64,000 bases of DNA, from contig CAVUZH010000018.1 of assembly GCA_963745835.1 (NCBI GenBank), forward strand, positions 96,001 through 160,000. Direction: 5' to 3'. The notes under the pieces were generated by a model. That model searched no databases. It saw only the letters and a program-made list of their open reading frames with translations, and was not told where the DNA came from. Shown here in pieces: positions 27,050 through 33,590 of the stretch (positions within the stretch are counted from its first letter, which is position 1; every line of letters begins with the position of its first letter). The DNA is from an uncultured delta proteobacterium. GTDB taxonomy: Bacteria > Desulfobacterota > Binatia > UBA9968. Position numbers and translations under genes: made by a program.

Positions 27050-28314
27050 ATGTCCAACCTTATCATCGGCATTTTTCTTGTGCTTTTCACTCTAGAGTTT
27101 GTCGTTGAGTTCATCCTCAATGAGCTCAACATTCGCCAGGTCCGGAAGAGTAGAGCGGCGCACGCGGTCCCGGAATTTTTTCAAGAGAAAATCAGCAAGG
27201 ACGACTACGAGCAATCCGCTCGTTATACATTGGCCAAATCTCGCTTCCAACGCTGGTCGGAGGTTTATGGCCGTACCGTGATTTTGTTTCTACTATTCGG
27301 TGGGCTCCTGCCGTTTTTAGAAAACTTGATCATCGCGATGCTGCCTCAGAGTCTAGCTAACAGCCTTATAAGGGGCGTGCTCTTCTGCCTTGGTGTCGGC
27401 GTGATATTTTCACTGGCCAGTCTTCCCATCGATCTTTATTCCACGTTTGGTATTGAAAGTCGATTCGGTTTCAATAAGACGACTCTGTCACTTTATTTTT
27501 CAGATAAGTTAAAAGGACTGATTCTGGGAATTATGATTGGCGGGCCTTTTTTATATGTTGTGCTCTGGCTGATGCAAGCAACCGGCGAATACTGGTGGAT
27601 CTGGGCATTTGTTTTCATCACCTTCTTCCAGCTCCTGATGATCATAATTGTTCCAACTTTTATCGCCCCCTGGTTCAACAAGTTTGAACCGTTGGCCAAC
27701 GGAGAGCTGCGCGATCGGATACTGGCGCTGGCAAACCAGATCGGTTTCAATCAAGCGGTATTTTTTTAATGGACGGTTCGAAACGTTCAGCTCATTCGAA
27801 CGCGTACTTCACCGGGATCGGCGGGGCCAAACGGATTGTACTTTTTGATACCTTAGTTGAACAGATGACCATCGAACAGGGACTTGCGGTGTTGGCGCAT
27901 GAGATGGGGCACTACAAAATGAAACACATTCGCCGGATGATGCTTGTGCAGAGTGTGATTCTATTCGTCGGCTTATATATTCTCAGTCGGCTGGTGAATT
28001 ACCACCCGGTGTTTTCTGCGTTTGACTTACAACCGTCAAATCATGCAGCGTTAGTCCTCTTCAGTCTGCTTTCAGGGCCATTAACTTTTTACCTTGCACC
28101 ATTAGTGAATCTCTTGTCGCGCAAACACGAGTACGAGGCCGATCGTTTTGCGGTAATCACGTTGGGCAACGGCAAGCCGATGGAAGAAGCACTGATCAAT
28201 CTAACGGTAAAAAATTTGTCGAACCTGACGCCGCATCCATGGTATTCGGCTTATCACTACTCGCACCCGACCCCGACAGAGCGAATTGGCGCGATTCGAC
28301 GAATCACGATCTAG
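27050..28314 (+). CDS. M48 family (Ste24-like) zinc metallopeptidase, split by one frameshift near 27748
   Basis: N-terminal TM half (27050-27769) plus DGSKRSAHSNAYFTG, HEMGH and EYEAD (27769-28314); adding one base restores GFKSSGIFLMDGSKRS. Confidence 0.9.
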
Positions 28315-28850
28315 CAAGCTTCAGATGCACCGCAGCACGCAAAGGCGCCGGCAGTCGGGGACTAGTGACAAACTAATGGATAGACAGAGTTTATCACGAG
28401 CTTTCCCGAGTCCCCTGCGAAAGAATGCGAGCAACTCTGCTGGATTCCAGCCTTGCGCGCAATTATGGCGTCCTAACATACAAAATATTTGACTGCTGAA
28501 GAGAGTTTCGTGTACCTTTAGCGCCCATACAGCTAGTTGAGGGGACTAGTTAACGGCGCCACCTCAACGCCTTATTTCGTTCGTATCTCTGGTGCGGTCT
28601 ACCAACCCTTTCTAATTTCGTGCTGGCACAGCCCATGAGGAACGCTCAATAAGTGAACCGATTGTCTGGCAGCGATGAACGAACTGAGGCTGCTTTCTAC
28701 TCGAAATCCTCGGTAATGGCTGTAGCTTTCTTGAGCCTATTTATCGAACGGGCGACCTTCTCTCGAGGAGGAGCTGCTTCAATTACCCGGTGAGCTCCAA
28801 GGAGTAGAGAGAGCCTGGCAGAGGAGCTTGAGTCTGAATCGATCGAAATA

Positions 28851-29355
28851 ATCCGCCTTTCCGGGTCAGGCAAGTCGACAATCGCCAATCTATTGGAGAA
28901 ACGTTTCCATGCGGAAGGCAAGCACACCTATATCTTGGACGGTGACAATGTTCGCCACGGGCTCAATCGGGATTTGGGCTTCACCGAGGCGGACCGAGTC
29001 GAAAACATTCGCCGAGTGGCAGAGGTCGCGAAACTGTTGGTCGATGCGGGACTGATCGTCATAGTCGCCTTCATTTCGCCATTCCGTGCGGAGCGACAAC
29101 TGGCGCGCAGCCTTTTCGATCCCGGAGAATTTATCGAAGTGTTTGTCGATACTCCTTTGGAGGAATGCGAGCGCCGTGACCGAAGGGACTATATGCGAAA
29201 GCCAGGTGCGGCGAGTTGAAGAACTTTACTGGCGTAGACAGCGACTTATGAGCCACCTGAAGTTGCCGGATATTCATTTGCAAACTAACGGACTCTCACC
29301 TGAAACTTGCGTTATTGAAATCATCAAGAATGTTATAGCGAAAGCATTTACTTAA
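28851..29355 (+). pseudogene. cysC: Adenylyl-sulfate (APS) kinase domain, 5'-truncated and frameshifted
   Basis: [32 protein letters not shown], then DPKGLY/KNFTG in shifted frames; in-frame TGA at 28791 and no clean start before the P-loop. Confidence 0.8.
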
Positions 29356-29445
29356 AATGAAATGAGCAAGCGTTCAATGCATGATCGGAAAAGGGCTGTG
29401 GGCTGCAAGTGGACTTGTGATCGCAGCGGTTAAGTTGGAAGAGCT

Positions 29446-30030
29446 ATGGGGATTGTACCTATTTATGTGTGGACTCATCTGCCAACCGCCGATAATAGAG
29501 ATGGCTTGGTTGCGCGATCCGAGCAGTCCGTGCTGCCGCAAGTCCTTGATCAACGGAGGACAAAGTTCCAGCAGTTGCAAGAACAAGATCCTTACCTTTT
29601 GGATAAGCTTGTTAAACTGTTTCGTATCTTTAAAGCTGTTTACTGCCCCTCAAGCCCAAGGCACATCGAATCGGCAACACTGATTGGTGAGTTCTTCCAA
29701 CTGCCAGCGCCCATTCCGGATGCGCGTTTGAATGCCGTCGACTACGGAACTTTCAAGGGACAACCGCTATCGGCGATGAAACCACCGCATAACTATGTCG
29801 AAATCGCTTACCCAAGTGGTGAGAGTTGGCTTCAATGTCTCGGTCGCTGGCGATCGTTTTTTGAGGAAGTGCTCCCAAAATATAATGGCAAACCGGTACT
29901 CCTTTCTGGACAGACGAGAGCAGCCATCCGAATGTGCGCTCATTTATGCGATGGGATGGAACTATACCAAGCAGTCGATCTTGAAGTTGACGATCCGAAT
30001 GTTCCTTGGGTTTATTTCTACAGATATTAA
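29446..30030 (+). CDS. Histidine phosphatase (phosphoglycerate mutase-like) fold protein, divergent
   Basis: WTH at the RHG position, TADN..G, VYCPSSPRHIESA, DARLNAVDYGTFKG and YPSGESW, in the family order. Confidence 0.65.
   Translation: MGIVPIYVWTHLPTADNRDGLVARSEQSVLPQVLDQRRTKFQQLQEQDPYLLDKLVKLFRIFKAVYCPSSPRHIESATLIGEFFQLPAPIPDARLNAVDYGTFKGQPLSAMKPPHNYVEIAYPSGESWLQCLGRWRSFFEEVLPKYNGKPVLLSGQTRAAIRMCAHLCDGMELYQAVDLEVDDPNVPWVYFYRY
29500..29601 (+). repeat. Copy 1 of a 34-codon segment shared with 30539-30640
   Basis: DGLVARSEQSVLPQVLDQRRTKFQQLQEQDPYLL. Confidence 0.85.
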
Positions 30031-30487
30031 ACGCGTAAAATTTCCCGTTCCGTGATGTGCCGCCTTTTAGTAGATTGAACAGTGACCTGCCTTGATCGAT
30101 CGTTAACGGAGGTACAGCCTTTTTCTCATTTTTCCCGCTTCAGCTGATCCATACTTGCACTGGCCTCCGGAATCTCATTTTGACGTAGTTGTTTGCATTA
30201 CTTGACAAACCTTATCATTTGTGAGCTATTGTAGCGCACTCAGAATTCCAAAAAAGGAGTGCCATCATTCCCCAAAAGTTTCTAATTAGCCGGAATAGCC
30301 ACGTTTGCGGTTAATCAAGGACGGCAAGTCGCACATTTATTTTAAACGTTGTCATTCCTGGACATTTGCCAGCGGCCGAGAAAAGCAGCGATCGTAAGTT
30401 CCTCAAAAGTTTGTGTACCGATAGTTCGATCCCCAATTGCCTAGCAGGAAAGTAAGATAGAACCATTATCATCAGTACGGAACACAT

Positions 30488-31379
30488 ATGAGAATCAATC
30501 CCAAGGGGACGAATGGTCCTTCACGTGTTAACAAACCGGACGGGCTGATGGCCCGGTCAGAGTTGCCGTTGCTCTCGATTGACATAAAGGAACGTAGGAA
30601 TCAATTCCAGCAGCTGCAAGATCAAGATTCTTTCCACTTAAGGATTAGGATTAGATTCGCGAGTTTTGATTATCGAAGGAATCTCCGGGTCTGGTAAGGA
30701 TACGTTTCAGACTTTTCTAAAAAATAAGCTGAAGGACCGAGACGTGTATGACTATTCTGAGGGCGAGCTATTGCATTCGTGGAAGCAGTTTCCGATTGAG
30801 GGCATTTTGGAATTACGAGTTAAGTTCATGAAACTTTTTGTGAACTATGTAAGAGATATTATTAGTCGAGATGAGAGCGCCGTTTTTCTTTTGAACAGGT
30901 TCCATTTGTCTACGTATGCATGGACAATTATCCAAAAAAAAAAATTGGAAGAAAATACGGTGAGATCGTCAGGTTCCTGAGACTGCTCCTGTTCATGTCT
31001 TTATTTTGCAAGAGGAAGAAAATGAGATTGAGAAGAGAAGCTTGATGAGAAAACTAGTGCATGGCGGAAGTTTCAAAGACAGAGGGTGGAGAATTATAGC
31101 TTTTGCGAGAGATTGAAGAGACAACAAAAATTAATTCTAGACGCAGCACGGAAACAACACATCCCCTACTCTATAATAAAGCTTACTCCCTACGAAGCCG
31201 AAATAGGAGACGCACAGATTCGTATCTCTAGAGCCTCGGATGTTTTTCATCGCGGTGTGCAGATAGATTCTGCAGATACAAGATTTATCTCAGCAAAAGT
31301 AACGTCTACCTCAAACGATTCAAGAGGAAGAACTAAAGCGATCTCAGCAAATTGTAGTGATAAGGAAGCCGCGAAATGA
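30488..31379 (+). CDS. P-loop nucleotide kinase-like protein (thymidylate-kinase-like), several frameshifts
   Basis: Fragments 30488-30697, 30666-30980 and 31086-31379; LIIEGISGSGKDT P-loop and FLLNRFHLSTY (like TMPK DRY..ST); stop overlaps the next start (ATGA). Confidence 0.65.
30539..30640 (+). repeat. Copy 2 of the shared 34-codon segment
   Basis: DGLMARSELPLLSIDIKERRNQFQQLQDQDSFHL; 18 of 34 residues identical to copy 1, no gaps. Confidence 0.85.
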
Positions 31380-32110
31380 TAGCTACAGATAAGTTCGTAT
31401 TTGCGCATCTACCACGGTCAGGCGGCACATTTGTTACTGCCGTGATCAAGAAGTTCTTTCCAACAGCTCGTGAAATCGGCCACCATTTGCCGCGGGAGCT
31501 TCTGCCCAAACAGTACTCCCGGCTTCCAGTTCTTGGTACTGTTCGGAACCCATGGGATTTTTATGTCTCACTATATCATTATCTCTGGCCGAAAGATGCC
31601 GCAAGCATATTGGTCTCCTGGATGACCGAGAGCGGCAAACTCGGATTTCAAGGTAGCCTTCGAAACCTGCTGAATCTCGGTGTCGACGACGGGCGTCTCG
31701 ATGTTTTGATCAAGATGCTGCCTGAGCGCCTTGACTACAGTAAGAGAAACATTCCTAGCGCTACCAAAGAGGCAATGGGAAAAGTTCGCGGCACCGGAAT
31801 CGGCTATTATACCTTCCGCTTCAATCAGATGTTCGCAAATGCGGACGATGTGTTTTTCTGTCGGCTTGAAACTCTGAGTCAGGATCTGGTCGTCTTCTTT
31901 GAGAGGATCGGCGCAAAGACGGATGAATTATGGCACTACGTGCATGGCGCTGATAAAGTTAACGCGGCTGAACACCTCCACTACTCGACTTATTATCCGC
32001 CGGAGCTTGCAGAATTAGTTTCAGTTCGCGACCGGCCATTGATTGAGAGATTTGGCTACGCCTTCCAGCAGACTCACGGAGCGCCAAACCTTCCCTATAA
32101 GAACACTTAA
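31376..32110 (+). CDS. PAPS-dependent sulfotransferase family protein
   Basis: FVFAHLPRSGGT (5'-PSB loop), VRNPWDFYVSLY (3'-PB), RLETL and C-terminal D..LIERFGY. Confidence 0.8.
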   Translation: MIATDKFVFAHLPRSGGTFVTAVIKKFFPTAREIGHHLPRELLPKQYSRLPVLGTVRNPWDFYVSLYHYLWPKDAASILVSWMTESGKLGFQGSLRNLLNLGVDDGRLDVLIKMLPERLDYSKRNIPSATKEAMGKVRGTGIGYYTFRFNQMFANADDVFFCRLETLSQDLVVFFERIGAKTDELWHYVHGADKVNAAEHLHYSTYYPPELAELVSVRDRPLIERFGYAFQQTHGAPNLPYKNT

Positions 32111-32235: not shown

Positions 32236-33590
32236 ATGGAGAACATTGAACACATGCCTCCTGATGATATAGGCCAGCCGACGGGTTTTGTAAGACCCAT
32301 TAGCACAAAGAGAATTGGAGGGCCATCCCACGGAACCGCCGCTGCAGACCCGATTTTCTCGTCGGAACCGTTGATTGCTTATAGGTACGATAGCAATCTC
32401 GCCCGACAGGAGGAAGTAATATTCACCGTAAAGACGACCTTGCAGCTGGAAAAAAATGACTATCAGGCAGAGCATATAAAAAGGCCGAACCGGGGAGTGT
32501 TCGGACGGGAAGCAGCCCGTCCATATGTCTTCGGCATCGTGGCGGCATTTTCTCTTGGTCATGATCGATTAGATTGGAGCTTAGCCGAGGCGAATTGGGC
32601 TTTTTCTGCCGTCGAGCCGTATGGCGTGGACGCCAGGGGAAACAAAATGGGGTTGGCTACAGCTAAGTCCGTTCAGTTGATCGACATGGATACTGGAGAA
32701 GTGAGGTCTTGTCACAATCCTTGGCTCAACCAGTCACACACGGTCGAGTTTTCGCCGGATGGAAAGAAACTTTTGGTCGGATCGTCCGGTTTCGATGCGG
32801 TGTTCGAATTTGATACGGAGAGCGGAGAAGTCGTTTGGAAGTGGTTCGCGTGGGACCATGGTTTCACCGATCAAACCTGGGTCACTACGTCGTCCGTTCG
32901 GAAGACAAGGAAAGCGCTGGCCGCGATGCATCACGAAGTGATGTTGGTAGATGATCCCGCAAAGTATCCGAATTCGGCATCCCTACACGGCGAAAGCCGG
33001 CTCATCTCAATAGCGCCTGTTACGATTCGGATGGAAAGATCCTTGTAACTTTATTCCATCAAGGAGCGGGTTATGTTATCGACCGGAACAATGGTGAGAC
33101 CAGAGAAGTAATTTCCGGTCTTTCAAATCCCCACAAGCTTTCGCGGCGAAAAAGAGGAGGATACTTCATCTCGGATACCAAGGGGGGTAAAGTGATTTTT
33201 TTGGACGAAAAATATCGTCCTGAATACGAAGTCGCCCTCGCAGGAATGCCGGGGGTCGCACGATCGCCACAGTTATCGGAGTTCTTGCAGAACACGACCG
33301 AGTTGAGGGAAGATCTGTTCGCGTGCATCGATATCCACCGAAGCTCTCTCTGGCTCATCGACGTGAAACGTCGTAGATATCGCGGAATCAAGTTTCCTGT
33401 GGAGTGGTCGGTGCACGATATTGCGAGTCTCGGTCGAGAACATCGACTCCGTATAGGCAGCTTGGTCGGTACCCAATTCGGCAAAGTCGCTGCTTTCAGG
33501 CGGCAACTCAAAGTCATACATCATTTCTCAGTGGATGGCCGGGAAATCAAGGCTCTGGCTCTTGATAGCCAATCCGTCAGAGAAGGTTAG
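32236..33590 (+). CDS. Beta-propeller protein, arylsulfotransferase-like His motifs, frameshifted
   Basis: HTVEFSPDGKKLLV and FDTESGEVVWKW blades; shifted frame reads PAHLNSACYDSDGKILVTLFHQ...GLSNPH and joins ORF 33192-33590. Confidence 0.6.

Follow-up and report, generated by a model that had tools for sequence, protein, structure and literature searches.

A fragment of the histidine-phosphatase fold as N-terminal tail of a P-loop kinase-like protein in Binatia-type soil bacteria

6-Phosphofructo-2-kinase/fructose-2,6-bisphosphatase (PFK-2/FBPase-2) is the textbook example of a P-loop kinase fused to a histidine phosphatase, the whole active phosphatase domain being placed after the kinase. 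Unrelated sequences are also joined in chimeric genes, where partial duplication or rearrangement fuses the 5' end of one gene to another, and in shufflons and invertible tail-fibre segments, where a constant N-terminal part is joined to variable C-terminal parts. Enzymes of one locus may further have N-terminal encapsulation or targeting peptides in common, e.g. the cargo of microcompartments. The present study concerns a kinase-like gene, p'K, located in a stretch of 64,000 nucleotides (nt; hereafter the window) from an uncultured delta proteobacterium of the Binatia (assembly GCA_963745835.1, contig CAVUZH010000018.1, positions 96,001 to 160,000, forward strand). It lies in a cluster with genes for an adenosine 5'-phosphosulfate (APS) kinase, a histidine-phosphatase-like protein (P), a sulfotransferase-like protein (S) and a further protein (B). 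Our results showed that p'K is one chimeric gene of about 280 codons, in which a copy of the 5' module of P with its ATG (p') is fused in frame to a kinase-like body (K), and that such chimeras are common in related soil bacteria.

By architecture alone, p'K can be likened to PFK-2/FBPase-2, since both join a P-loop kinase-type domain and histidine-phosphatase-type sequence in one polypeptide. In p'K, however, a 56-residue fragment stands before the kinase and the full phosphatase-like protein is encoded by a separate gene; since only this fragment is present, p'K is not a bifunctional enzyme of the PFK-2/FBPase-2 type. The closest general category is the chimeric gene born from partial duplication or rearrangement: the body of a neighbouring gene follows in frame on the start codon and first ~56 codons of P, and later evolution was mosaic. 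Yet p'K is unusual in age, spread and constraint, being old relative to the sampled kinase family, present in most of its members and still under purifying selection in its fold fragment. A piece of the histidine-phosphatase fold, made up of strand, active-site loop and helix, has long been carried there as the N-terminal tail of an unrelated enzyme, which makes p'K a clean natural case of what fold fragments do, be it as recognition element, regulator or mere expression adaptor. The features concerned are the following.

29446-30030, + strand: P, 194 residues, degenerate histidine-phosphatase fold (Pfam, AlphaFold2, Foldseek, hhalign)
29446-29613, + strand: N-terminal module of P, residues 1-56 (beta1, conserved loop, alpha1, start of the next helix)
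29500-29601, + strand: 34-residue peptide in P (residues 19-52)
30488-30639, + strand: p', copy of the P N-terminal module and true 5' end of the kinase gene, start ATG at 30488
30539-30640, + strand: copy of the 34-residue peptide in p'K (residues 18-51)
30639-30640: two bases (CC) missing between these positions, an assembly error (contigs X4 and X7)
30642-31379, + strand: K, P-loop kinase-like domain and tail, in four frame pieces (indels near 30933, 30987 and 31044-31046)

An earlier note, made from the window alone, had reported two gapless 34-residue segments in the two genes and considered that the peptide rather than the DNA had been kept. Both segments were found as described, with 18 of 34 residues and 66 of 102 nt identical and with different codons at 10 of the 18 identical residues. 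This level of identity was reached by none of 100,000 shuffles of the second peptide. BLASTP comparison of the open reading frames (ORFs) of 194 residues (29446-30030, P) and 69 residues (30488-30697) gave 21 identities over 44 positions (E 1e-9), and when all six frames of the 7.28-Mb genome were searched with P, only P itself and the p' site (E 8.7e-4) were returned. In ortholog alignments, the homology of the two proteins began at the initiator Met and reached about residue 56, i.e. beyond the 34 residues first noted. In both families, the best kept parts were a loop (GLVARSEQPVLP) and the helix that follows it.

As assembled, the kinase-like gene was broken into the pieces 30488-30697, 30666-30980, a short frame after an A11 run, 31006-31116 and 31086-31379. 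A stop at 30695-30697 closed the first of these and the kinase frame opened separately, an arrangement in keeping with the suggestion that the 69-residue ORF stands on its own and encodes a small inhibitor or decoy protein acting on P or K, with a one-base shift at the junction. Logan contigs from four public metagenome runs belonging to three studies were compared over 29400-31450, some stretches of which were without cover in some runs; public RNA runs, in which only 0.06-0.09 of sampled words were present, were left out of this comparison. Two independent contigs carried CC behind 30639, namely X4 (a 315-nt piece otherwise devoid of differences) and X7, whereby the frame break disappeared and the peptide and kinase frames came into register. 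Further indels were an A behind 30933 (X4 and X7), a C behind 30987 (X7 only), a C behind 31044 together with CCA behind 31046 (X2 and X7) and a 1-nt deletion at 31343 (X7 only). With these counted, the kinase pieces formed one ORF, whose parts, translated separately, matched intact orthologs end to end.

The indels in independent contigs and the match to intact orthologs identify the 69-residue ORF as the 5' end of the kinase gene; it stands beside kinase fragments in the window because bases were dropped or added in assembly, and the frame break at the peptide/kinase junction is an assembly error. The contigs come from other samples than the window's, whose own reads would bring formal proof. 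A separate inhibitor or decoy is almost certainly not what this ORF encodes, the more so as peptide and kinase formed one continuous ORF in 52 of 86 loci (see below), only L015 (frame breaks between peptide and kinase) and L026 (stop at the junction) also separating the two parts. Other genes nearby were split as well: an M48-type peptidase gene (27050-28314) appeared as two ORFs abutting at 27769, and both the APS-kinase region (28537-29355) and B (32236-33590) were interrupted by apparent frameshifts. The same frame-split look was observed in long-contig metagenome-assembled genomes (MAGs) related to the window's, e.g. L015. As the kinase breaks were matched by indels in independent contigs, many small indel errors are probably present in the assembly, and split ORFs in this long-contig assembly should be checked against other data before being read biologically.

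No named domain had previously been recognised in the shared segment. P passed the Pfam cut-off for His_Phos_1 (PF00300; 29.7 bits vs 21.7, E 6.5e-7) and its ortholog in L008 scored 33.5 bits; the match to P covers residues 62-185, and it is because it only starts at residue 62 that the peptide looked unnamed. The AlphaFold2 model of P (44-sequence alignment, mean predicted local distance difference test, pLDDT, of 74) displayed an alpha/beta fold in which a strand (residues 3-9) is followed by a loop modelled with low confidence (12-24) and by two helices (31-47 and 49-59). Its top Foldseek matches in the PDB were phosphoglycerate mutases and histidine phosphatases (probability 1.0, TM-score 0.54-0.60). 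Likewise, hhalign aligned the P family to five canonical His_Phos_1 paralogs of its own genome (probability 96.9, E 2e-10; P 7-187 on template 2-175). The N-terminal module fell on the RHG...N...G..D..LTE.G..QA start of these paralogs, H11 being paired with the catalytic His, N17 with the conserved Asn and L30-P31-E32 with the LTE motif. Fold model and hhalign together thus place the shared segment at the strand-loop-helix start of the histidine-phosphatase fold (beta1, the loop after the catalytic His, alpha1) and set the direction of transfer from P to K.

P accordingly has the fold of branch 1 of the histidine phosphatase superfamily (phosphoglycerate-mutase-like) but not its full set of catalytic residues, while p'K holds its first ~56 residues only. 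The Arg of RHG is replaced by Thr, Asn or Gly and the second catalytic His by Gln156; His11 is retained, as are the Arg of PRH (R72) and the Glu of GGE. These residues suggest that P may be a pseudo-enzyme or have an altered chemistry. At E<=0.001, no fewer than 153 database clusters belonged to the P family, with 66-91% identity for the 120 best listed; the family profile returned no match among solved structures at E<=0.01.

The body of p'K is of another kind, in agreement with the earlier view that the two proteins have unrelated catalytic folds. A Walker A motif (GISGSGKD) was present in 24 of 24 aligned sequences, and matches to dTMP-kinase-like families were weak (24.3 bits for Pfam Thymidylate_kin, below the cut-off of 27, and 29.3 vs 83 for NCBIfam DTMP_kinase). 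The AlphaFold2 model of p'K displayed a confident alpha/beta domain at residues 59-233. The p' segment ahead of it is an incomplete phosphatase domain, only residues 1-56 being homologous before the kinase begins.

For the distribution of the chimera, 89 loci were examined (80 metagenome contigs plus genome loci), K being present in 86. The core peptide occurred in the kinase's own frame in 52 of these. In L008, a close relative (Candidatus Binatia), an intact 281-residue p'K ORF was found within the same gene order as in the window (P, p'K, S, B). A database search scored on residues 1-56 alone returned 30 proteins, mostly peptide-kinase chimeras of 261-286 residues, with two P-type proteins of 194 residues. 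With a peptide-less kinase query, 952 relatives were obtained; from the 120 listed, 115 new ones were added to 23 earlier proteins, and among the resulting 138 K-family proteins the core peptide was present in 68, only its second half in 48, and neither or a drifted version in 22. K-family proteins of 129-412 residues carried at most the 56-residue module.

The search for fusion partners suggested in the earlier note was made with a peptide profile against 1.84 billion representative proteins. Of its 24 matches, 19 were of the P or p'K type or pieces of these, and two were spurious matches to repeat proteins; three (P0152, P0161 and P0157) displayed the peptide with unrelated sequence. Two of these three share a junction (...EARHAHCF...) and may be further fusions, or frameshifted or chimeric contigs. 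Neither a third family with the peptide nor a protein with both full kinase and full phosphatase domains occurred among the 24 matches. A protein atlas search with residues 1-58 of the L008 p'K gave no usable match. No description of a peptide-kinase chimera was found in literature searches on Binatia/Binatota, histidine phosphatases, kinase gene fusions and sulfotransferases, supplements lying outside those searches; the entries listed included papers on gene fusions in cancer and the Binatota genome paper (mBio 2021, PMC8262859).

A second type of N-terminus appeared among the proteins with only the second half of the peptide. In 35 of the 48, the start was MLITDKFV-like and resembled that of S (MIVTDKFVF...); these proteins lay within P0183-P0286, and such starts were found in loci L033, L042, L050, L054, L056, L059, L061, L069 and L073. 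Four further K-family proteins displayed a longer S-like start (..TDKFVFLH) joined to the peptide core. Within a locus, the S-like start of the kinase and the start of S shared ~53% of nt (160/300), so that the S-like kinase starts are not recent copies. It is conceivable, if quite improbable, that the N-terminal modules of this sulfation-type cluster act as exchangeable address tags, with the P start on P and most kinases and an S-like start on another third of the kinases. Such tags would recruit the enzymes of the cluster to a common partner, scaffold or substrate, and recurrent recombination at the tag/body junction would amount to natural N-terminal cassette shuffling in an uncultured phylum. 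As a separate observation, the first 15 residues of P (MGIVPIYVWTHLP, 29446-29490) and S (MIATDKFVFAHLP, 31376-31420) in the window are alike when read side by side ([YF]V[WF].HLP), which may be due to chance or to microhomology that helped 5'-end exchanges.

At the DNA level, the peptide was found to be under moderate purifying selection, in line with the earlier claim that it is kept as protein. In the 28-codon core of 17 disjoint p'K pairs, the ratio of non-synonymous to synonymous differences (pN/pS) was 0.49; non-synonymous changes made up 87 of 149, where 74% would be expected (binomial p 2e-5). Residues specific to p' (QL instead of QF, DSY instead of DPY) were kept across kinase subfamilies that are only ~53% identical. 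Moreover, two genomes (G041 and G042) kept p'K although no P was found in their assemblies. Gene conversion from P is therefore not the sole reason for the persistence of the peptide, nor can the peptide work solely by binding P.

The reading that we favour, with moderate confidence, is that of a fusion-derived, flexible accessory tail on the kinase that has retained some function. The 5' module of P would by itself be unable to form the phosphatase fold and would become a flexible N-terminal tail in the kinase, whose translation start it would supply through the P-derived ATG. As loop and helix are the best kept parts of both families, the tail would have inherited a recognition or regulatory role from P, its loop and helix serving as an accessory, non-essential element of that kind. 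The ligand or partner contacted by the tail is probably that of the corresponding loop in P. This partner may be a common nucleotide or sulfation-pathway ligand, or a pathway protein; with an APS kinase and a sulfotransferase-like gene in the cluster, the common ligand might be the most natural guess. A complex prediction for S with residues 1-70 of p'K scored 0.00 against a mark of 0.32 and, controls not having been run, is evidence for neither side.

Several observations weigh against a functional tail. The peptide is dispensable, as 30 of the 86 K-bearing loci have half of it, none of it or a drifted version: 14 displayed its second half only, seven had long N-terminal extensions drifted beyond recognition, and nine of the 11 with a short kinase N-terminus had no trace of it (the other two being L015 and L026, where it is separated from K); K was cut by the contig end in the remaining two. 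The earlier note had envisaged a motif confined to the phosphatase family and missing from kinase orthologs. This applies to the loci without trace and, in part, to those with the second half, but most kinase orthologs carry the peptide. In the window itself, p' is the most diverged copy seen (end branch 0.83, best identity 58%) and has lost the histidine. AlphaFold2 gave a pLDDT below 50 to residues 1-45 of p'K and predicted neither structure nor contact for them. Selection on the peptide was weaker than on the kinase, the first 90 codons of which had a pN/pS of 0.31 in the 17 disjoint pairs (all pairs: 0.44-0.58 for the core vs 0.13-0.26 for the kinase). Finally, recombination or conversion, of which pairwise pN/pS takes no account, adds to the apparent conservation. 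In the pairs L024/L081, L019/L091, L039/L094 and L034/L093, 50-60% of synonymous sites in the first 90 kinase codons differed, against 3 of 84 nt of core DNA, which points to recombination breaking at or close to where peptide and kinase meet.

Losses, low model confidence, mosaic pairs and the strong divergence of the window's copy are also what would be expected of a relic, i.e. a leftover P 5' end that donates a ribosome-binding site and a start codon and is kept by conversion or recombination and by the need for an open frame. Two p'K proteins, P0014 and P0015, fit this picture too: their first ~20 residues are P-like and differ there from those of their close kinase relative P0002. A mere relic is nevertheless somewhat unlikely in our view, considering that pN/pS in the disjoint pairs is significantly below neutral, that the peptide persists in the two genomes without P as donor and that p'-specific residues are kept across distant kinase subfamilies. 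The passing suggestion in the earlier note of a relic of a phosphatase-kinase fusion came close to the outcome inasmuch as a P module was indeed fused onto K.

The age of the fusion also favours the functional-tail reading. In a tree of 81 kinase domains, peptide-bearing forms occurred on both sides of the deepest split (100% support), whereas short and half forms were scattered and well-supported branches forced at least 5-6 changes. The simplest account is that the sampled kinases inherited the long N-terminal extension from their common ancestor, with many later losses. Resolution was poor in the tree of the 56-residue modules, whose P-type ends need two changes; this is compatible with one fusion origin. 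Three-frame translations of the spacers in L005, L006 and L010 (peptide-less K) and in L009 and L013 (no K), inspected by eye, displayed no peptide remnants. Directly behind S, remnants of the P body in inverted orientation were found in six loci with a peptide- or half-peptide-bearing kinase:

L019 4670-4720, opposite strand: inverted P remnant
L029 1739-1804, opposite strand: inverted P remnant
L048 1902-1991, opposite strand: inverted P remnant
L053 4699-4770, opposite strand: inverted P remnant
L056 3571-3618, opposite strand: inverted P remnant
L059 2920-3246, opposite strand: inverted P remnant

Each may have been left behind either when P was split by an inversion or by the decay of a P gene in convergent orientation. 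The fusion itself may go back either to an inversion splitting a P gene or to partial duplication.

In Binatia-type soil bacteria, the members of the cluster (APS kinase, P, K, S and B) swap 5' ends and orientation, the cluster offering a handle on an uncharacterised pathway. In addition to P and p'K, the window holds the following members:

28857-29285, + strand: APS-kinase (CysC-type) region, upstream of P, fragmented (tblastn with the CysNC of L015)
30201-30371, + strand: conserved spacer block between P and p'K, a TTGACA-containing element followed by a conserved leader of ~130 nt
31376-32110, + strand: S, sulfotransferase-like, downstream of K (weak match to Pfam Sulfotransfer_1)
32236-33590, + strand: B, protein of 450-500 residues, here as two ORFs, 32236-33048 and 33192-33590 (tblastn to intact orthologs)

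ORF 28893-29219 matched Pfam APS_kinase with an E-value of 3.4e-40, and B displayed a weak PQQ_2 match only. Of the 86 K-bearing loci, 80 had S behind K in the same orientation, and the available sequence of the remaining six stops ~200 nt or less after K. The order P+ p'K+ S+ B+ was shared by the window, L008, L024, L081, L085 and others. In L005, L006, L010 and L078, the order was P+ S- K- B+ with a peptide-less K, and in L076, L077 and L080 a peptide-less K directly followed P+. P was located downstream of S in L036 and L042. L014, L015 and no fewer than 12 contigs whose upstream flank measures at least 1.2 kb had p'K+ S+ without P. P occurred without K in G044 and G045, and P and S did so in L009 and L013, no K being found elsewhere in the genomes of the latter two.

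These orders bear on a further proposal, put forward in the earlier note, that the peptide is a docking or targeting motif bringing the kinase and the phosphatase-like protein to a common partner or substrate as a coupled opposing pair. A conserved loop and helix is indeed present on two enzymes of different fold from one gene cluster and is under purifying selection in K; moreover, loop 12-24 of P is nearly invariant yet of low confidence in the AlphaFold2 model, as would be typical of a binding surface. There is also a likeness to the targeting peptides mentioned above, a short N-terminal segment occurring on adjacent enzymes of unrelated fold and being predicted flexible in p'K. In P, however, the segment contributes a strand and a helix to the folded core and is no free tag, and the helix, as read from the sequence, is highly charged, not amphipathic; shell or compartment genes were not detected among the neighbours scanned. 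Furthermore, every combination of P, p'K and K occurs, with P next to peptide-less K (the seven loci listed above), p'K without P (G041 and G042) and P without K (G044 and G045), so that there is no obligatory coupling, and with the RHG Arg and second catalytic His missing from P its 'eraser' activity is doubtful. A docking motif in this strong form is rather unlikely.

Programmed switching can be weighed against the same data. A regulated inversion of the K-S block would join the constant N-terminal module to different bodies, in the manner of a shufflon. The K-S pair does occur in either orientation relative to P and B (compare L005, L006, L010 and L078 with the window, L008, L024, L081 and L085), breakpoints recur at the peptide/kinase junction, and a short inverted P-body remnant lies behind S in the six loci listed. 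Like in shufflons, one N-terminal module is found on different bodies and a neighbouring block is inverted between genomes. Yet the orientation differences lie between diverged genomes, not within one population. No consistent inverted repeats were found at the junctions (P codon ~56, kinase start) in L005, L006 and L010, where the sole recurring repeat pair, a GAATTC-containing site in P with one inside S, was read as chance and coding constraint. No recombinase was present among the ORFs scanned over ~19.7-40.6 kb of the window, and no rearrangement joints were seen in the contigs compared over 29400-31450, although contigs are a weak test of heterogeneity. Since inverted repeats, recombinase and joints were all missing from these searches, the orders are read as evolutionary rearrangements and a programmed switch is very improbable.

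The spacer block between P and p'K could be aligned in six loci with P upstream of p'K (window 30201-30371, L008 5727-5897, L024 1987-2159, L085 2520-2692, L083 2540-2711 and L081 665-834). It may act as a promoter with leader, or as an operator. The conserved TTGACA element was not called in a sigma-70 scan, and Rfam gave no match at E<=1 on window positions 29000-30700. RNAalifold on the six loci returned a covariation term of only -0.74 kcal/mol, with compensatory changes in two of 25 pairs, and no RNA element is claimed.

The records in which the cluster was 70-80% identical (L007, L009, L010 and L013) had quite diverse taxon titles, i.e. Binatia, Thermodesulfobacteriota, Alphaproteobacteria, Solirubrobacterales and Syntrophobacteraceae. 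This may be due either to unreliable MAG labels or to horizontal movement of the cluster.

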